A stretch of 40,632 nucleotides of DNA from a virus (taxonomy: Duplodnaviria > Heunggongvirae > Uroviricota > Caudoviricetes): positions 1 through 40,632 of IMG/VR virus record IMGVR_UViG_2541047846_000008; one strand, given 5' to 3'. The position numbers and the translations under genes are program-made. Positions 2,381-17,152 of the stretch are shown here, piece after piece; the first letter of the stretch is position 1; every line of letters starts with the position of its first letter. The notes below the pieces were generated by a model. That model was not told the origin of the DNA and did not search any database. It worked only from the letters and a program-made list of their open reading frames with translations.

Positions 2381-2742
2381 TATGCTCCAGCCTCCAGTGC
2401 TTTTGGCATTACTGCCCAGTGAGTGATGTTGACGTTTTCAAGGTCCCCGACCTGAAATGTCCACTGCCATTCTCCGGTTTCTTTTTGCCCCCATGTATAC
2501 CAGAGAGAACGCCAGCCAATCAGCCAGCCTTCTCCATTAGCATCAAATAACAGAACACTTTCATTCGCTGGCGGCAGTTCAGCTGACACTGGTATTACTT
2601 TGTTTTCCAGTGCTGCACATTTAGCTTCAAGCGCATCAAATTTACGCACCAGGTATTCAGCATCCGTTTCATTCACTTTCAGATCTCGCGGTACACATTT
2701 CCCGCGAAGAAATCCTTCCATTTCGAAAACATTCATGCGCAT
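2380..2742 (-). CDS. Hypothetical protein, YfdS-like (120 aa)
   Basis: 120-aa ORF in a block whose sizes and order match the CPS-53 yfdP-yfdS block; assignment by analogy, not sequence recall. Confidence 0.5.
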   Translation of the reverse strand: MRMNVFEMEGFLRGKCVPRDLKVNETDAEYLVRKFDALEAKCAALENKVIPVSAELPPANESVLLFDANGEGWLIGWRSLWYTWGQKETGEWQWTFQVGDLENVNITHWAVMPKALEAGA

Positions 2743-3269
2743 TTGCGTAACTCCGATAATTCGTTAAAGCGTTCCATAAACATCCCGTAGGCATGGCCTG
2801 GAGCCAGTGGAATCACGTTGAACATCTCTGTTGCCGGGATACCTTCCAGTACAGGCCAGAAAGAGCCATCATCAAGCCCGAGATCGCGGCGTTCGGTTGC
2901 CAGCATGATGAGATCGGCATATTTCACGGGCGTACTCATAACCGGTGGTAACCCGTATTTCTCACGGATTACGGCGTCTATTTTTTCTTCCATCCGTTTA
3001 TAGTCAGGAAGAAGGCGTTTCAGTGGTGCGGGAATGTCCTGGCAATACGCTTCTGTTGCATCATGCATTAACGCTTCAAAAGCAAATTCCTGCGGCACCA
3101 GCTGGCTGCAAAGAACCGCATGTTGGGCGACGCTGTAGAAGTGCGAAAGATGACCGGCAAAGCGACAGATATTTGAAAGGGAAACCGCGATATCGTTAAT
3201 ATCGATGTCGTCTTTATTTATCCTGTCATAATAAAAATGCTTCCCGGAAAAAGTTTTAATAAATGACAT
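2733..3269 (-). CDS. yfdR: HD-domain metal-dependent phosphohydrolase (YfdR-like)
   Basis: HD-domain His/Asp pattern (AGH..H, MHDATE); 178 aa from the internal Met (track ORF 2733..3296). Confidence 0.65.
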   Translation of the reverse strand: MSFIKTFSGKHFYYDRINKDDIDINDIAVSLSNICRFAGHLSHFYSVAQHAVLCSQLVPQEFAFEALMHDATEAYCQDIPAPLKRLLPDYKRMEEKIDAVIREKYGLPPVMSTPVKYADLIMLATERRDLGLDDGSFWPVLEGIPATEMFNVIPLAPGHAYGMFMERFNELSELRKCA

Positions 3270-3396
3270 TTTGTTCTCCACGTATATGCGCTGCACCGCG
3301 CTGAATTCTGCTAAAAAGAATCCCTCACCATCCGGTGATTATTGAGTTAATTACGTTTCCATAAATGCCCCCGCAGGGGCATTTGCAGTAATGAAA

Positions 3397-4221
3397 TCAG
3401 GCGGTGAAAGTACCAATAAAGGTTTCTACTTTGCTGTCTTTGAATTTCTCAACAAGCAGATCACGAAATTCGTTAGCCATTTCTTCCTGCACCGCTTCCA
3501 GCTGAATAATGCGCAGAACCAGTACAGGACGATCGCCAGTGATAATGCTGAGGCGTAATTTAAACGGACGTTCTTTCAGACCTTCAAACGGAACGCATTT
3601 AAATTCAAATGCCACTGGCATAATGTCTTTGGTCTTCGCTTCGACAGACTCCATCAGGGAGCGTTTGCCGCTGAAGTCATTGTCTTCAAAATCAGCGGTC
3701 TGGTTCGCTTCAATTGTGATTTTACGGATCGCCGCAGCCGCTTTGGTTGCCTGAATGGCGTCACCATTAGCATCAAAGCCCACAAGGTAGTCGGCCCAGT
3801 CTTCAATCCATTCTGCCAGTGACTTCTGGGAGTTACGCTCGCCATTAACAGACAACAGAGCATAGAACGGTGCTGTCTTTTTCAGTTTGAGAGTGGCGGT
3901 GTTATCTGCGTGACCTGGTTCATCAATAGTACCCAGGTTAAGCACACTGACGGCTCGCATATTATCGGCATCGATAAAGCAGCGGGTGCCTTCATCTGCA
4001 AGATCTTTAGAATAACGGGTAAAGTCATCGATGCTGGCAGTGGAAAGTGCACCACGGAAACGGAAACGATTTAAATTAAATTTTTCCAGATCATGAATGC
4101 GGAAATTCTCAGGCAATGCCACAGCATCGGCACCAATCTTACTGATAATTTCATTAACACCCTGAGCAGAAATAAGGGCATGGATTTGATTAATTGCGGT
4201 TGAGTCTAAGTTCTGAGACAT
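3397..4221 (-). CDS. yfdQ: YfdQ-like (DUF2303-type) phage protein
   Basis: 274-aa ORF; size and position match CPS-53 YfdQ; symbol by analogy. Confidence 0.55.
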
Positions 4222-11747: not shown

Positions 11748-12557
11748 ATGAATAATCTGATGGTCATTGATGGTATTGAAGTTCGTCGTGATGCTTATGG
11801 GCGTTACAGCCTGAACGATCTGCATCGCGCAGCAGTAGCATCTGGTGCAAATGCCAGAACCAAGGAGCCGGGAAAGTTTCTTTCCAGCCAACAAACTGTT
11901 GAGCTTGTTCATGAATTGACCAACACCCAGAATTTGGGTGTTGACCCGGTGAGTGTGATTCATGGGGGAAATGAACGGGGAACGTATGTCTGCAAGGAAC
12001 TGGTGTATGCCTATGCAATGTGGATCAGCCCGTCATTCCATCTGAAGGTGATCCGTACTTTCGATATGGTAACCAGCGCACCGGAAAAATTATCCGGACA
12101 GGCTGCTGACAAGATGCAGGCTGGCGTGATCCTGCTGGACTTTATGCGCCGGGAATTAAACCTGTCTAACTCTTCAGTGCTTGGTGCCTGTCAGAAACTC
12201 CAGGAGGCTGTTGGCTTACCGAATCTGGCACCGCGCTATGCCATTGATGCTCCTGCTGACGCGCCTGATGGCTCAAGCCGCCCCACGCTGTCACTGAGTG
12301 CACTGCTGAAGCAGTATGGTATCCGCCTGACAGCTAATCAGGCATATCACCAGATGGTGAAACTGGGGATCGTCGAGCAGCGCGAACGATACAGCCGTAC
12401 CGCGATTAACAACATCAAAAAATTCTGGTCGCTGACAGCGAAAGGTTGCATGTTCGGCAAGAACATCACCAGTCCCGCAAATCCGCGCGAGACGCAGCCG
12501 CATTTCTTCGAATCCCGATTCCCTGAGCTGTTAAAGCTGCTCGATACCGTTCATTGA
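11748..12557 (+). CDS. KilA-N domain protein (antirepressor-like)
   Basis: N-terminal KilA-N-like segment; strong RBS GAGGAG. Confidence 0.55.
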   Translation: MNNLMVIDGIEVRRDAYGRYSLNDLHRAAVASGANARTKEPGKFLSSQQTVELVHELTNTQNLGVDPVSVIHGGNERGTYVCKELVYAYAMWISPSFHLKVIRTFDMVTSAPEKLSGQAADKMQAGVILLDFMRRELNLSNSSVLGACQKLQEAVGLPNLAPRYAIDAPADAPDGSSRPTLSLSALLKQYGIRLTANQAYHQMVKLGIVEQRERYSRTAINNIKKFWSLTAKGCMFGKNITSPANPRETQPHFFESRFPELLKLLDTVH

Positions 12558-12558
12558 G

Positions 12559-13554
12559 GTGACCGTGAGAGCACTACTGACCCCTGAAATTGCCCCGCGT
12601 ATGGGGATCGTATTGTTCAGGCCAGGTTCAGAGCTGATGCCCCTGTTTATGCAGGGGCGTGTTCTGCTGGAGCCTGAGCCGGAACGTTATTCATCTTTCG
12701 CCAGTGGTGCCGTTCCGGCGGCATCACAACCGCTGGCGGATGATCCTGCCGTTCGGGCCGTGTTCCGCAATGAGGCAGTGATCCGTCGTGCTGGTGGCGT
12801 GGAATGTCTTGAAAGCTGGTTACTTCGTGAAAAAGGCTGCCAGTGGCCTCATTCCGACTGGCACAGCGAGAACATGACCACAATGCGACACGCTCCGGGC
12901 GCAATCCGTCTGTGCTGGCACTGCGATAACCAGCTGCGCGATCAGTTCACGGAACGGCTGGAATCAATGGCAACGGATAACTGTGCCCGCTGGGTGTTGT
13001 CTGTTGTGCGTCGGGATCTCGGTTTTGATGACAGTCACGTTGTGACAATGCCGGAACTGTGCTGGTGGCTGGTTCGTAATGATCTGGCGGATGCCTTACC
13101 GGAAAGCGCAGCCCGTAAGGCACTGAGATTACCGAATCCTGTTGTGCCGTCTGTCACCCGGGAAAGTGACCTTGTGCCTTCGGTTCCTGCCACCAGCATC
13201 ATCCAGGATAAGGCGAAAAAGGTGCTGGCGCTGAAAGTGGATCCGGAGTCGCCGGAGTCTTTTATGTTACGCCCAAAACGTCGCCGCTGGGTTAATGAAA
13301 AGTACACGCGCTGGGTTAAGACACAGCCGTGCGCATGTTGTGGAAAGCCTGCTGATGATCCTCACCACCTGATAGGCCACGGTCAGGGGGGAATGGGTAC
13401 AAAAGCGCATGACCTCTTTGTGTTGCCTTTGTGCAGAAAGCATCACGACGAGCTGCATGCGGATACCGTGGCATTTGAAGAGAAGTATGGCTCCCAGCTG
13501 GAGCTGATATTTCGTTTTATCGATCGTGCGCTGGCAATAGGCGTACTGGCGTAA
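12559..13554 (+). CDS. DUF968-family protein with C-terminal HNH-like zinc motif (GTG start)
   Basis: C-terminal CACCG..HHLIGHG..CRKHHDELH motif; nin-region position. Confidence 0.55.
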   Translation: MTVRALLTPEIAPRMGIVLFRPGSELMPLFMQGRVLLEPEPERYSSFASGAVPAASQPLADDPAVRAVFRNEAVIRRAGGVECLESWLLREKGCQWPHSDWHSENMTTMRHAPGAIRLCWHCDNQLRDQFTERLESMATDNCARWVLSVVRRDLGFDDSHVVTMPELCWWLVRNDLADALPESAARKALRLPNPVVPSVTRESDLVPSVPATSIIQDKAKKVLALKVDPESPESFMLRPKRRRWVNEKYTRWVKTQPCACCGKPADDPHHLIGHGQGGMGTKAHDLFVLPLCRKHHDELHADTVAFEEKYGSQLELIFRFIDRALAIGVLA

Positions 13555-13567
13555 GTGGAGAACGAGC

Positions 13568-14320
13568 ATGAACCTTGAAGCCTTACCAAAATATTACTCC
13601 CCAAAATCTCCAAAATTGAGCGATGACGCACCGGCGACAGGCTCAGGTGGTTTAACGATTACGGATGTGATGGCTGCGCAGGGGATGGTGCAGTCGAAAG
13701 CACCGCTTGGGTTTGCCTTATTCCTGGCAAAAGTTGGTGTTCAGGATCCTCAGTTTGCGATTGAAGGTCTGCTCAATTACGCGATGGCACTGGATAACCC
13801 GACATTGAATAAATTGAGTGAAGAAACCCGGTTACAGCTCATCCCTTACCTTGTGAATTTTGCCTTTGCTGATTATTCCAGGTCTGCGGCAAGTAAGGCT
13901 CGCTGTGAGCATTGTGCTGGTACTGGATTTCATAATGTATTGCGCGAAGTGGTGAAACACTCCAGAAGCGGGGAATCAGTTATCAAGGAAGAGTGGGTGA
14001 AGGAACTATGTCAGCATTGTCATGGTAAGGGAGAAGTCAGCACAGCGTGCAGAGGGTGTAAGGGTAAAGGTATTGTCCTGGATGAAAAAAGGACCCGGCT
14101 TCATGGCACGCCTGTTTATAAGATTTGTGGGCGTTGCAATGGAAACCGGTTTAGCCGTTTACCAACCACACTGGCGCGGCATCATGTCCAGAAGCTGGTA
14201 CCAGACCTGACGGATCATCAGTGGTACAAAGGATATGCAGATGTCATTGATAAACTGGTGACAAAGTGCTGGCAGGAAGAAGCATATGCTGAGGCGCAAT
14301 TAAGAAAAGTGACAAGATAA
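13568..14320 (+). CDS. Late-gene antiterminator Q-like protein (zinc-binding)
   Basis: Four CxxC pairs; sits immediately upstream of the pR'-like promoter, tR'-like terminator and lysis cassette. Confidence 0.55.
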   Translation: MNLEALPKYYSPKSPKLSDDAPATGSGGLTITDVMAAQGMVQSKAPLGFALFLAKVGVQDPQFAIEGLLNYAMALDNPTLNKLSEETRLQLIPYLVNFAFADYSRSAASKARCEHCAGTGFHNVLREVVKHSRSGESVIKEEWVKELCQHCHGKGEVSTACRGCKGKGIVLDEKRTRLHGTPVYKICGRCNGNRFSRLPTTLARHHVQKLVPDLTDHQWYKGYADVIDKLVTKCWQEEAYAEAQLRKVTR

Positions 14321-14351
14321 ATGATTTTCGCCGAAGATGGCGACATGATGC

Positions 14352-14389
14352 TTGCATTTTTCAAAAAATCTGGTTAGGATTTTCCTAAC
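14352..14389 (+). promoter_or_regulatory. Candidate late promoter (pR'-like) with adjacent hairpin (possible qut region)
   Basis: TTGCAT, 17-bp spacer, TAGGAT; overlaps perfect hairpin GTTAGGA-TTT-TCCTAAC. Confidence 0.4.
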
Positions 14390-14430
14390 GATGGGCTTTG
14401 TATGTCTGCCGTTAACGAAATCATAACAAA

Positions 14431-14451
14431 CCTCGCTTCGGCGGGGTTTTT
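14431..14451 (+). terminator. tR'-like Rho-independent terminator downstream of the late promoter
   Basis: CCTCGC-TTCG-GCGGGG stem with UUCG tetraloop followed by TTTTT. Confidence 0.6.
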
Positions 14452-14470
14452 GCTTTTCTGGAGGTCAATA

Positions 14471-14728
14471 ATGCAGGGCGAAAAGCAGCAGCCATATTTT
14501 TTTAACCCTGGTATGACTGTTGAACAGCTTGAAGACTGGCTGGAGCAGCAAAAGCTTCATCTAAGCCGCTATAACCGTCTGGTAAAAGAAAAAGCAGAGC
14601 TTGAAGAACGGCTCAGTGATATTTCTGTGGAAATTGAACGAATGTCTGCTGGTGGTTTTAACGGAAAGTTGAGTTTCCCCTGGGAGTCAAGTTCGCTTCT
14701 GAGAAATCATCAACAGGGTAGTGTTTGA
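14471..14728 (+). CDS. Small hypothetical protein (85 aa, coiled-coil-like) between tR' and holin
   Basis: Internal ATG with GGAGG RBS just after the terminator; the track ORF start at 14402 would overlap the terminator. Confidence 0.4.
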   Translation: MQGEKQQPYFFNPGMTVEQLEDWLEQQKLHLSRYNRLVKEKAELEERLSDISVEIERMSAGGFNGKLSFPWESSSLLRNHQQGSV

Positions 14729-14807
14729 CTGAAATAATAAACAGACTGTCATTAAGATCCCTTCCCCTCATATCTGAGAGGACCAACAGCAATTAAGAGG
14801 GGGCTAA

Positions 14808-15194
14808 ATGTCCGATCCGATTTCCGGTACTTGGCTGGCTGGTGGTGCCCTGACGGGTGCCAGTGTTTATGGACTGCTGACCGGAACTGATTACGGCGTT
14901 GTATTTGGCGCATTTGCAGGGGCTGTATTCTACATAGCAACAGCAGCAGATCTGAGTGCATCGCGCCGGCTGGCATATTTTATCGTGTCATATATTGCCG
15001 GGATTCTTTGCTCTGGGTTGGTTGGCTCCAAGCTGGCGAACTTGACCGGATACAGTGATAAACCTCTGGATGCTATTGGTGCCGTAATCGTCTCTGCTTT
15101 AGCCGTTAAAATCCTGACGTTCCTGAATAATCAGGATATCGGCTCGCTGGTGGCGCTCATAACGCGCCGGGGAGGTTCAGGTGGAGCTAAATGA
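14808..15194 (+). CDS. Putative holin (multi-pass membrane protein)
   Basis: 128 aa, Gly/Ala-rich hydrophobic segments; strong RBS; first gene of lysis cassette. Confidence 0.6.
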   Translation: MSDPISGTWLAGGALTGASVYGLLTGTDYGVVFGAFAGAVFYIATAADLSASRRLAYFIVSYIAGILCSGLVGSKLANLTGYSDKPLDAIGAVIVSALAVKILTFLNNQDIGSLVALITRRGGSGGAK

Positions 15195-15462
15195 CCCGAC
15201 AGCAACTATAAATGCGCTGTTATGTGCTTGTGTTGTTATTACTCTGATGTTTTATCGTCGTGGTGATTCGCGGCATCGTCCTTGGGTTTCACGTTTAGCC
15301 TGGTTGATTACTGTTACATACAGTGCTGTTCCGTTGGCCTATCTCTGTGGGATTTATCCCCATTCCTCATGGCCCATTATCGTGGCGAATACTATTTTTC
15401 TTTCCGTGCTGGTGGCCGTCAGAGGCAACGTTGCACGTCTGGTTGATCATCTGAGGCACTAA
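15181..15462 (+). CDS. Small membrane protein (holin or antiholin partner)
   Basis: 93 aa with hydrophobic helices; overlaps flanking lysis genes. Confidence 0.45.
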   Translation: MELNDPTATINALLCACVVITLMFYRRGDSRHRPWVSRLAWLITVTYSAVPLAYLCGIYPHSSWPIIVANTIFLSVLVAVRGNVARLVDHLRH

Positions 15463-16076
15463 TGAACCAACAATTATTTCAAAAGGCGGCTGGTATTAGC
15501 GCCGGGCTGGCTGTGCGCTGGTTTCCGCACATTGATGCGGCGATGAAGGAATTCGGCATTACAGCACCAGCGGATCAGGCGATGTTTATCGCTCAGGTAG
15601 GCCATGAGTCGATGGGGTTTAGCGCCGTAGTTGAAAATCTTAACTACACACCATCTGCGCTTGTGGCGACGTTCGGAAAGAGGATCACACAGCAGCAGGC
15701 TGATGCCCTTGGCAGAACATCCGGACATGCAGCTCGTCAGGATGCTATTGCCAATCTGGTGTATAGCAACCGACTGGGTAACAAAGCACCAGGTGATGGC
15801 TGGAAATATCGTGGTAGAGGATTAATTCAAATCACTGGCCTCCATAATTATCGCATCTGTGGCGCGGCGCTGAAGTTAGATCTGGTGACTTCACCTGAAC
15901 AACTGGAACAGGAACTACAGGCTGCGCGCTCAGCTGCATGGTTCTACACCTCTAAAGGCTGCATGATCTACGGTGCCGATATTAACCGTGTTACGCGCAT
16001 CATTAACGGCGGTCTGAACGGTATTGAGGATCGTAAGGTCCGATACAACAAGGCGCGGGCGGCGCTGCTGGTATGA
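15462..16076 (+). CDS. Endolysin (glycoside hydrolase family 19 / lysozyme-like)
   Basis: 204 aa; motifs FIAQVGHES and YRGRGLIQITG typical of GH19-type endolysins. Confidence 0.8.
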   Translation: MNQQLFQKAAGISAGLAVRWFPHIDAAMKEFGITAPADQAMFIAQVGHESMGFSAVVENLNYTPSALVATFGKRITQQQADALGRTSGHAARQDAIANLVYSNRLGNKAPGDGWKYRGRGLIQITGLHNYRICGAALKLDLVTSPEQLEQELQAARSAAWFYTSKGCMIYGADINRVTRIINGGLNGIEDRKVRYNKARAALLV

Positions 16077-16507
16077 AGATGAGTTATTGGGCGCTCATTT
16101 TAACGTTTATTGCTTGTGTCGCTGGTGGTCTTGTCTGGTCAGCGAATCACTATCATGGAAAGTTTCTGGAGGAGCAGAAGCGTGCTGATGCTGCGGAACA
16201 GCGAGCTGATTCTACTGAGGCTATCACCGCGAATGTTCTGCGTACTATGGCAATAACGAACATCATTCAGGAGGCGAATCAACATGCAAAACAGCAGATC
16301 GCACTGGAGTCACAGAGAACCCAGGAAGATATCAAAGTGGCTGTTGCGGATGATGATTGTGCTTCACGTCCTGTGCCTGCTGCCGCTGCTGACCGGTTGC
16401 GGAAGTACGCGAACAGTTTACGTAACAGTACCTCCAATTCCGCTTCCAGCTACTCTGACTTTGGAAACGCCAGTACCGCACATACCAGATACCCTGACCT
16501 ATGGTGA
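16073..16507 (+). CDS. Rz-like inner-membrane spanin (i-spanin)
   Basis: N-terminal TM helix then charged coiled-coil region; follows endolysin. Confidence 0.7.
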   Translation: MKMSYWALILTFIACVAGGLVWSANHYHGKFLEEQKRADAAEQRADSTEAITANVLRTMAITNIIQEANQHAKQQIALESQRTQEDIKVAVADDDCASRPVPAAAADRLRKYANSLRNSTSNSASSYSDFGNASTAHTRYPDLW

Positions 16508-16598
16508 CAGCCTGGAGTTGAATGTGAGTCTGTTGTCGGCGTTGGAACAGTGTAATTTTGATAAAGCGACAATAAAAAGTATTGATGCTAACAAGTAA
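16350..16598 (+). CDS. Rz1-like outer-membrane lipoprotein spanin (o-spanin), nested in and extending beyond Rz
   Basis: Alternate frame within Rz; signal peptide with lipobox LLTGC; Pro-rich mature region. Confidence 0.65.
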   Translation: MMIVLHVLCLLPLLTGCGSTRTVYVTVPPIPLPATLTLETPVPHIPDTLTYGDSLELNVSLLSALEQCNFDKATIKSIDANK

Positions 16599-16660
16599 AA
16601 GAGCCTGCACCTTTATAGAGATGATTCCATGTTAATATCGCTCCTCTAACGGGAGGCATT

Positions 16661-17152
16661 ATGATGGATTGGAATATGTGGTCTGCTATTGGGGCTTGTG
16701 GTTCGGCTATCGCGTCTTTTGGGGCGTTGTGTTATGCCCGTAAGGCGTTAAACACATGGAATAGACAGGAGCAATTTAAAGTAAAGTTAGAGTTTAAGAG
16801 AGCTTTACTTCAGTTGGAGGATGCCTTTGAGGCAATGCCTGATAATTGGAATTCCGTACAGTATAGAATAGCCAAAACATTTGCGTCTCAGAGGGGCAAC
16901 GATATATATAATGGAGTTGTTGAGGCTGAAAAACAGCTGTTTTATAAAAAACAAAACCTTAATTTAGCGTACGGACATTCCGTACAGGCATGGGTTTTGT
17001 GTGAAGAACTGTTTAAAGACAATACTATTCATGATGAATGGAAAGCTTTCAGAATTAGTTATGATAATTACATTCTGAATGGTGGGAACAAAAATGATTA
17101 TTTGCCAATGATAAAAAATATATATTCAAAAATTCCTGTGTTTAATGGTTGA
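16661..17152 (+). CDS. Membrane-anchored hypothetical protein (AT-rich moron between lysis and packaging)
   Basis: 163 aa; one N-terminal TM segment then soluble domain; GGGAGG RBS; AT-rich. Confidence 0.6.
   Translation: MMDWNMWSAIGACGSAIASFGALCYARKALNTWNRQEQFKVKLEFKRALLQLEDAFEAMPDNWNSVQYRIAKTFASQRGNDIYNGVVEAEKQLFYKKQNLNLAYGHSVQAWVLCEELFKDNTIHDEWKAFRISYDNYILNGGNKNDYLPMIKNIYSKIPVFNG

Follow-up and report, generated by a model that had tools for sequence, protein, structure and literature searches.

Which signals control the first gene behind the Q antiterminator of this phage, and does that gene belong to the lysis machinery or is it a passenger in a slot where related phages carry toxin genes? 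The stretch of DNA analysed here, referred to as the window, is 40,632 nucleotides long and comes from a tailed phage (Caudoviricetes; IMG/VR record IMGVR_UViG_2541047846_000008). An original prediction, made from the letters alone, placed a late promoter, a hairpin and a terminator behind a Q-like gene, followed by a small open reading frame (ORF) rather than a lysis gene. From the sequence comparisons described below, we suggest that the region is very probably a late-gene switch of the lambda type, controlled by Q, and that the gene behind it is accessory cargo that likewise depends on Q.

Its matches place the window among temperate phages or prophages of the SfV/SKA5/118970_sal3 type. In megablast, positions 13568-15200 match Escherichia phage SKA5 and Salmonella phage 118970_sal3 at 98-99% identity, and positions 14330-14810 match a prophage of E. 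coli ZH177 at 100%. The gene order, from upstream to downstream, is a KilA-N protein, a DUF968/HNH protein (12559-13554), Q, an 85-aa ORF, two holin-family genes, a GH19 endolysin, Rz and Rz1. Pfam and PHROG searches and the RefSeq annotation define a lysis cassette of five ORFs on the plus strand (14808-16598): two holins, PF16931 (14808-15194) and PF05449 (15181-15462), the GH19 endolysin (15462-16076), Rz (16073-16507) and an embedded Rz1-like ORF (16284-16598).

The Q antiterminator gene (13568-14320, plus strand) encodes 250 amino acids. Profile searches match the protein to PF03589 (E 1.5e-53), to phrog_127 (E 1.5e-108) and to the Q-lambda structure PDB 7ubm (E 1.2e-37), the last in two blocks covering residues 1-120 and 160-250. 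The protein has an extra zinc-ribbon insertion and four CxxC motifs. By these matches Q is a member of the Q-lambda family. It shares this family with lambda Q (PF03589; PDB 7ubm) but, at 250 aa, carries a second zinc-ribbon pair of CxxC motifs. An identity as a Q21-family protein, as in the Stx2c literature, was ruled out by the structure search, which leads to the Q-lambda family.

A predicted pR'-type late promoter (14352-14380, plus strand) starts 31 bases past the Q stop codon and aligns in register with lambda pR' and with SfV. It consists of the -35 element TTGCAT (14352-14357), a spacer of 17 nt (14358-14374) and the -10 element TAGGAT (14375-14380). The lambda Q system comprises a DNA element that lies between -35 and -10 and is bound by Q, and a sigma-dependent pause element (PMC9388147, PMC6266700). 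The spacer of the window lies at the position of this Q-binding element, has the same length as in lambda and is identical to it at 11 of 17 positions, and it can be regarded as the candidate position of the Q-binding element here. Compared with lambda pR' (NC_001416), the register is the same and the hexamer positions coincide, whereas both hexamers, -35 and -10, and the remaining 6 of the 17 spacer positions differ in sequence. In the alignment, CAACGATGGG is invariant among lambda, SfV and the window. The identical promoter type is present in SfV, mEp460, the Stx2c phages and 2H10.

In lambda, AACGATGGG is the start of the late transcript, and the AACGAT within the same region is a -10-like sigma-dependent pause element. 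Six nucleotides after its -10 element the window has the identical 9-mer (14387-14395, plus strand), at the same distance as in lambda, and this is the predicted start of the late transcript, with +1 predicted at A14387 (plus or minus 1). AACGAT and the GGG that follows match lambda exactly and at equal distance from the -10 element. We infer that AACGAT acts as a -10-like sigma-dependent pause element also here, with polymerase expected to pause at about 14402-14403. AACGATGGG occurs twice in the window, against 0.41 copies expected by chance, and the copy at 14387 alone has a promoter context; the second copy, at 17624-32 on the minus strand, lacks one and was dismissed. Among 29 promoter variants the 9-mer is nearly constant, being changed in four. 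One contig, L170, has a window-type promoter fused to the lambda 6S leader directly after AACGATGGG. Judged by this junction, which falls immediately past the 9-mer, the pause element is a recombination joint in its own right.

Between this promoter and the first late gene sits the intrinsic terminator tR' (14428-14458, plus strand). Its stem, AAACCUCGC/GCGGGGUUU (14428-14449), carries a UUCG loop closed by C-G and is followed by UUGCUUUUCU. The GC core, CCUCGC-UUCG-GCGGGG (14431-46), is lengthened by A/U pairs and ends in the U-rich tail. With nine stem pairs it has the most among the 12 terminator-like sites in 12500-17000, and the hairpin energy is -13.1 kcal/mol; cUUCGg is an extra-stable tetraloop. 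ORF-bearing relatives retain the stem, while the loop is variable (TTCG, CTTT, AGTC, ACT, AACC, ACCC, TATAT). SfV, the Stx2c phages and 2H10 have a terminator at equal distance but with another sequence, which is annotated as a terminator in SfV; in the alignments the SfV/Stx2c type reads AACCCGCC-GCTG-AGCGGGTT. A megablast extension had suggested that 2H10 shares the terminator of the window, but this was an artefact, as the alignment shows a different terminator. Lambda also has an intrinsic terminator ahead of its first late gene; the leader is about 67 nt here and 194 nt in lambda, and the terminated RNA of the window is predicted to be about 66-70 nt. The pR'-tR' arrangement of the original prediction thus stands, and the promoter-like element and the UUCG-tetraloop terminator are present where they had been placed.

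For the hairpin of the original prediction, the reading as a possible qut finds no support: in the Q-lambda family qut is a DNA Q-binding element plus a pause element, and not an RNA hairpin (PMC9388147, PMC6266700). What had been seen was probably, for one of the hairpins, the DNA palindrome GTTAGGA-TTT-TCCTAAC (14373-14389). As it spans both the -10 element and the transcript start, it is not an RNA element. SfV, the Stx2c phages and L044 have versions of this promoter that are not palindromic here, and by a rough estimate palindrome arms of such size occur by chance about 15 times per 40 kb.

A second candidate is a potential RNA hairpin in the 5' leader (14387-14414, plus strand, about +1 to +28), where the MFE fold pairs AACG with CGUU and UGGGC with GUCUG. 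Over the 29 promoter variants, 92.8% of the cells are paired, compared with 32-50% in slid controls; covariation in the same variants does not exceed the shuffle control. The 5' arm of this hairpin is the nearly invariant pause element. The predicted hairpin may stabilise the 5' end of the transcript. An Rfam scan of 13000-16000 (E <= 10) returned sub-threshold chance matches alone, driven by the terminator (istR, leader families).

The 85-aa ORF (14471-14728, plus strand; stop codon at 14726-14728) follows the terminator directly. From the end of the terminator tail (14458) to the ATG at 14471 there are 12 nt, and within these lies the Shine-Dalgarno sequence GGAGG (14460-14464, plus strand), 6 nt before the ATG and about 9 nt past the first U-run. 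This spacing leaves no room for a separate ORF promoter between the terminator and the ATG. With the ribosome-binding site this close behind the U-run, any transcript that serves the ORF must have passed the terminator, and with the site directly behind tR' the transcription of the ORF would depend either on Q or on leakage of the terminator. The ORF fails the strict definition of a moron: it has neither its own promoter upstream nor its own terminator downstream, and the stretch from its end to the first holin (14729-14807) contains no terminator-like site.

RefSeq holds the identical 258-nt CDS, annotated as a hypothetical protein, and purine-rich equivalents of the Shine-Dalgarno sequence are kept in relatives. 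Compared with homologues at dS 0.7-2.6, the dN/dS of the ORF is 0.11-0.28; among very close relatives it is about 1, a value that comes from just 1-5 substitutions. From the low dN/dS, the conserved Shine-Dalgarno sequence and the RefSeq CDS we conclude that the ORF is a real coding gene under purifying selection. A longer ORF of 108 aa, starting at 14402, traverses the terminator, and the family alignment lends it no support. A real coding gene at this place sets the window apart from lambda, where nothing comparable lies between tR' and the holin: lambda has just the doubtful annotated orf-64, which is inside the leader, before tR'.

The protein matches phrog_3501 with E 1.2e-54, residues 1-84 being aligned to positions 1-84 of the 85 in the profile. 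This family, which the original prediction had not recognised, is narrow: among 1.84 billion proteins it forms 59 clusters when grouped at 90% identity and is reduced to 31 representatives at 50%, and an exhaustive profile search of the 1.84 billion representatives found no distant relatives outside it. The members with a named source are all enterobacterial (Escherichia, Salmonella, Citrobacter, Enterobacter, Kluyvera, Pectobacterium) and all 'hypothetical', and we found no functional data on phrog_3501 or on its ST64B member sb50 in the literature. Scans against Pfam, NCBIfam and PADLOC gave no match (for the PADLOC defence models, 0 families at E <= 0.01), and neither did any lysis-category PHROG or Pfam family. 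By these searches the ORF is a member of an already existing uncharacterised PHROG and not a recognisable lysis or defence protein.

The protein is hydrophilic and has no hydrophobic stretch, signal peptide or membrane segment. Its AlphaFold (AF2) model is one long helix, residues 17-60, with pLDDT 90-95 at residues 21-50. A PDB profile search returned just designed coiled coils and generic helices (best E 0.003). With Foldseek the best viral models reach E 3 and the PDB gives no match; for a single-helix model such a fold search is uninformative. On the basis of the model the protein is a soluble helical protein, probably an oligomeric coiled coil, in agreement with the original prediction of a coiled-coil-like protein, rather than a lysis protein, as the first gene product past the terminator. 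Residues 6-48 are nearly invariant on every face of the helix (QQPYFFNPGM..E.LEDWLGQQK.HL...NRLVKEKAALEERL). Conserved motifs are found at the N-terminus, QQPYFFNPGM, and at the C-terminus, SFPW(D/E)PSPLL.

The gene is widespread. The exact 85-aa protein is found on at least 1000 contigs, this version of the ORF occurs in E. coli chromosomes as a prophage gene, and 101 of 5426 complete E. coli genomes carry the entire stretch from promoter to ORF. GC content is 42-44% across the ORF, compared with about 50% in the flanking genes.

To describe the surroundings of the ORF we used 80 ORF-bearing viral contigs, 73 with enough upstream and 75 with enough downstream DNA. Three Q queries were searched, the PF03589 variants of 250 aa and 271 aa and the ST64B phrog_753 type, and a homologue of a query lies just upstream of the ORF in 66 of the 73 loci. 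The remaining seven all have a tRNA-Thr-type context. In one of these, L071, the order is an antiterminator of the DUF1133/PF06530 type (Q21 family), its own promoter and terminator, a tRNA-Thr gene and then the ORF; the antiterminator was verified in this contig and assumed in the other six, and the tRNA-Thr is confirmed in L071, L079 and L084. Downstream of the ORF a lysis cassette is present in all 75 loci, with holins of PF16931, PF05106, PF16083 or the ST64B type and with several endolysin types. The holin lies 79 nt away in the window, and for the 58 loci whose holin is PF16931 the median distance is 83 nt; in some loci the gap to the lysis genes reaches 2 kb and contains other genes.

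The ORF thus occurs behind three antiterminator gene groups and before at least four holin families. Since both the antiterminators and the holins vary across the 80 contigs, the ORF is, as far as gene order tells, tied to a position, after a Q-dependent terminator and before the lysis genes, and not to a particular neighbour. The interchangeable antiterminators and holin families around it also mark it as accessory cargo and not as core lysis machinery.

The alignments also reveal a mosaic. Megablast matches to SfV, mEp460, Ayreon, 15 Stx2c-converting phages and others span Q and the promoter and end at 14413, about +27. At this point the homology to SfV and the Stx2c phages stops, and homology to the leaders of ORF-bearing, Klebsiella-type phages starts. 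Among 41 ORF-bearing contexts, the 3' part of the leader, the 3' arm of the terminator, the U-run, the ribosome-binding site and the ORF are common to phages with quite different promoters. Because this stretch is shared across different promoters, the region from 14413 to about 14757 (plus strand) behaves, by homology, as a mobile cassette made up of the 3' part of the leader, tR', the 85-aa ORF and the remnant of a convergent gene, in which terminator and ORF travel together. Both the cassette starting at about 14413 and its presence behind three antiterminator gene groups go beyond the original prediction.

The remnant (14729-14757, minus strand) is a 29-nt identity with ST64B, in which, as in Klebsiella phages, the convergent gene (phrog_5286, E 2e-17) is intact. 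The counterparts of the ORF in ST64B (sb50) and in Klebsiella prophages belong to phrog_3501 and are homologous to the window protein at 63-76% identity. They too lie directly after a Q-type gene, and the 3' arm of the terminator, the U-run and the ribosome-binding site are homologous, whereas the Q genes, promoters and lysis cassettes differ from those of the window. The annotation of sb50 is too long, 119 aa, with a start upstream of the terminator. As the conserved C-terminal motif overlaps the convergent gene in ST64B-type phages, its conservation could be partly owed to the other strand.

On the promoter side of the joint, Q and the promoter are 97.6% identical to 15 Stx2c phage records. 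More broadly, SfV, the Stx2c phages (e.g. LC727876), mEp460 and 2H10 are 94-98% identical to the window over Q and the promoter up to about +27, and differ in what follows. The cargo is orf47 and a DNA methylase in SfV and cold-shock genes in 2H10; in the Stx2c phages it consists of a 141-aa ORF, a 75-aa ORF, a methylase, tRNA-Met, tRNA-Arg and, about 2.6 kb downstream, stx2c A (PF00161) and B (PF02258). LC727876 has three ORFs behind a window-type promoter, next the two tRNA genes and then both stx2c genes, and in contig L002 stx2c A and B likewise lie downstream of such a promoter; the positions of stx and qut in phages have been described (PMC6266700). The slot of the window contains the 85-aa ORF alone, without a Pfam domain, and no toxin genes. 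No tRNA genes were found in the near-identical SKA5 locus.

A survey of viral contigs scanned for the -35 element plus spacer sequence gave at least 119 loci, and the downstream DNA was clustered for the 101 of these with enough of it. Behind the window-type promoter, these 101 loci form 17 downstream sequence clusters with at least 12 different gene sets. The 75-aa ORF with a DNA methylase, as in SfV, and cold-shock (csp) genes of the 2H10/Qin type, with a confirmed CSD domain, account for 21 loci each. The 85-aa ORF is found in 16 and a lipoprotein-like ORF with a methylase in 14; other loci carry small zinc-ribbon proteins, a lambda-like direct junction to S, and others. The proposal that the ORF occupies the stx slot, and that this slot holds varied cargo, is well borne out by the Stx2c phages and by this survey. 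Most relatives with the same promoter carry other genes, so the ORF is, by this comparison, dispensable for the lambdoid late programme.

By analogy with lambda, whose Q mechanism and pause element have been described (PMC9388147), the region would work as follows. Sigma-70 RNA polymerase would initiate at about A14387 from TTGCAT-17-TAGGAT and pause a few nucleotides further on, when sigma re-binds the -10-like AACGAT on the non-template strand. Without Q, transcription would end at the UUCG-tetraloop terminator and give an RNA of about 67 nt. Once Q has accumulated from the gene just upstream, it would bind the DNA between -35 and -10, load onto the paused polymerase and make it resistant to termination. 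Read-through would then reach the 85-aa ORF, the holins, the endolysin, the spanins and the morphogenesis genes. The start site, the pause and the Q dependence in this scheme are predictions, as is any activity of the protein.

As for the protein itself, we propose that it serves as an adaptor, a soluble and probably oligomeric coiled coil with a component of the host as its target. Most phages that have this promoter lack the ORF, in keeping with an accessory role. The partner is most likely a host component common to Enterobacteriaceae rather than a phage protein, since the adjoining antiterminators and lysis genes are interchangeable while residues 6-48 are nearly invariant, and since the rest of the genome, judged from the differing carrier phages, is interchangeable too.

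Other explanations touch the promoter, the coding status of the ORF and its role. The terminator could merely end the early (Q) unit, with the promoter-like sequence inactive and the late genes driven from elsewhere. It is true that the -35 element is weak, scoring 3 of 6 against the consensus, and that a generic sigma-70 scan made no call there. However, an inactive promoter is highly improbable for a sequence that aligns in register with lambda pR', pause element included, and that is preserved after the same Q across at least 119 viral contigs with differing DNA beyond it; the sole other promoter-like site between Q and the holin is a 9/12 match at 14710-14738. Still less probable is that the ORF is untranslated and owes its conservation to an RNA leader element or to the overlapping convergent gene on the minus strand. 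In ST64B and Klebsiella phages phrog_5286 does overlap the final 70 nt or so of the ORF, and the palindrome TGGGATCCCA gives WDP on both strands. Yet the dN/dS of 0.11-0.28 holds for the whole ORF, the best-conserved residues 6-48 fall outside the overlap, the strong Shine-Dalgarno sequence is conserved, and in the window the convergent gene has been lost while the ORF is still intact.

If the ORF is a translated gene, its product might regulate the timing of lysis, as a cytoplasmic antiholin or a holin co-factor, functionally like T4 RIII, that is produced shortly ahead of the holins and binds their cytoplasmic parts. Its place directly upstream of the holin, at 79 nt here and a median of 83 nt in the PF16931 loci, the lysis cassette downstream in every one of the 75 loci and a predicted product that is late-expressed, small, soluble and helical would all suit such a role. 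We consider it unlikely, though, as the holins that follow the ORF belong to at least four unrelated families, the endolysins are of several types and other genes lie in gaps of up to 2 kb, and interchangeable holins fit poorly with a specific holin contact; the window-type promoter and related holins are also found without the ORF, and no lysis-category PHROG matches it. Somewhat more plausible, though still doubtful, is an action mainly in the lysogen, as conversion or defence cargo expressed at a low level from a constitutive pR' through leakage of tR'. Low expression of stx from pR' through tR' leakage is known. The same slot accommodates stx, csp and methylase genes and a STAND NTPase gene, the GC content of 42-44% lies below that of the neighbours, and the protein recurs unchanged on at least 1000 contigs, the version of the window being a prophage gene in E. 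coli chromosomes. Against this, the ORF has no promoter of its own, the terminator before it is strong and none follows it, no PADLOC defence model matches, and the protein has neither signal peptide nor membrane segment. A tentative reading of similar weight is that the position as first late gene is itself what has been selected: as the ORF is kept behind three antiterminator groups and before at least four holin families, the protein may perform a hitherto undescribed late-phase task on a conserved enterobacterial host target and spread as a terminator-plus-gene cassette. Host-process shutdown at the onset of late transcription, or lysis timing independent of the holin type, are examples of such tasks.

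By its sequence, the regulatory part of the locus is a textbook case of the lambda-type Q/pR'/tR' family; it differs little from the Q-pR' of SfV and the Stx2c phages, itself unstudied. In the Q/pR' type that SfV-like phages share with Stx2c-converting phages and many E. coli prophages, recombination has left a sharp joint about 27 nt past the start of the late transcript, and beyond this joint terminators and cargo are swapped between phages. Modestly new are the cassette of tR' plus ORF and its strict position behind different antiterminator groups. The 85-aa gene is common, under purifying selection and strictly conserved in position. Should its protein act on the host when late transcription or lysis begins, it would be a new small phage effector; otherwise it is one more hypothetical cargo gene.

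Overlong database annotations are frequent in the family of the 85-aa ORF (phrog_3501, window 14471-14728, plus strand), with 119 aa annotated for sb50 of ST64B (L005 2899-3258) and 108-aa forms elsewhere; in the window the 108-aa form would span 14402-14728. These overlong forms begin upstream of the terminator (14428-14458) and read through it. Both the family alignment and a Shine-Dalgarno sequence support 85 aa as the correct predicted length.

At its 3' end the ORF meets a convergent minus-strand gene of phrog_5286, which encodes about 144 aa of no assigned function. This gene is intact in ST64B (L005 3188-3622), where the annotation omits it, and in Klebsiella phages, and lies at about 3190-3620 in L006; the window keeps a 29-nt remnant (14729-14757, minus strand). 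In ST64B and the Klebsiella phages the gene overlaps the 85-aa ORF over its final ~70 nt, and a palindrome, TGGGATCCCA, specifies W-D-P in each of the two.

The interval between Q and the 85-aa ORF holds further genes in some relatives. One, L063, carries a 402-aa STAND-type NTPase there (2674-3882), matching PF20703 (nSTAND1) and weakly PADLOC PDC-S59, as well as an additional terminator ahead of the 85-aa ORF. In another group (L071, L079, L084 and others) a tRNA-Thr(UGU) directly precedes the ORF and follows an antiterminator with its own promoter and terminator (L071 3107-3998). The antiterminator is of the DUF1133/PF06530 type (Q21 family) in L071 and presumably so in the others. The layout of this group is similar to that of Stx phages.

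The Q gene of the window (13568-14320) encodes 250 aa, compared with 207 aa in lambda, and its Q-lambda similarity is split into two blocks, residues 1-120 and 160-250. An insert of ~40 aa brings the number of CxxC motifs to four. Together with a DnaJ_CXXCXGXG-like match, this suggests that the zinc ribbon of Q is duplicated.

Downstream of the 85-aa ORF, two tandem holin-family genes of different kinds, PF16931 (128 aa) and PF05449 (93 aa), occupy 14808-15462 with a mutual overlap of 14 nt; they may work as holin and antiholin or form a two-component holin. Further on, a 163-aa ORF (16661-17152; phrog_6169, no assigned function, no match in Pfam and PADLOC searches) is flanked by spanins and HNH/terminase genes. 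GC content drops here to 32-38%, from about 50% in the surroundings, and the ORF looks like a moron-type island.

The 9-mer at the predicted late transcript start (14387-14395), AACGATGGG, has a second copy on the minus strand at 17624-17632, around which no promoter context was found. This copy adjoins an inverted repeat, GGGGCGGG...CCCGCCCC, in a region (17580-17632) between the HNH endonuclease and small terminase genes that may be the cos region.

The 9-mer carries the predicted AACGAT pause element. L170, an IMG/VR contig, is a natural hybrid in which the window-type -35 and spacer are followed by lambda sequence, with the 6S leader and the S/R genes of that phage. The fusion point lies immediately 3' of AACGATGGG; thus, the pause element is a recombination joint between Q/pR' types.
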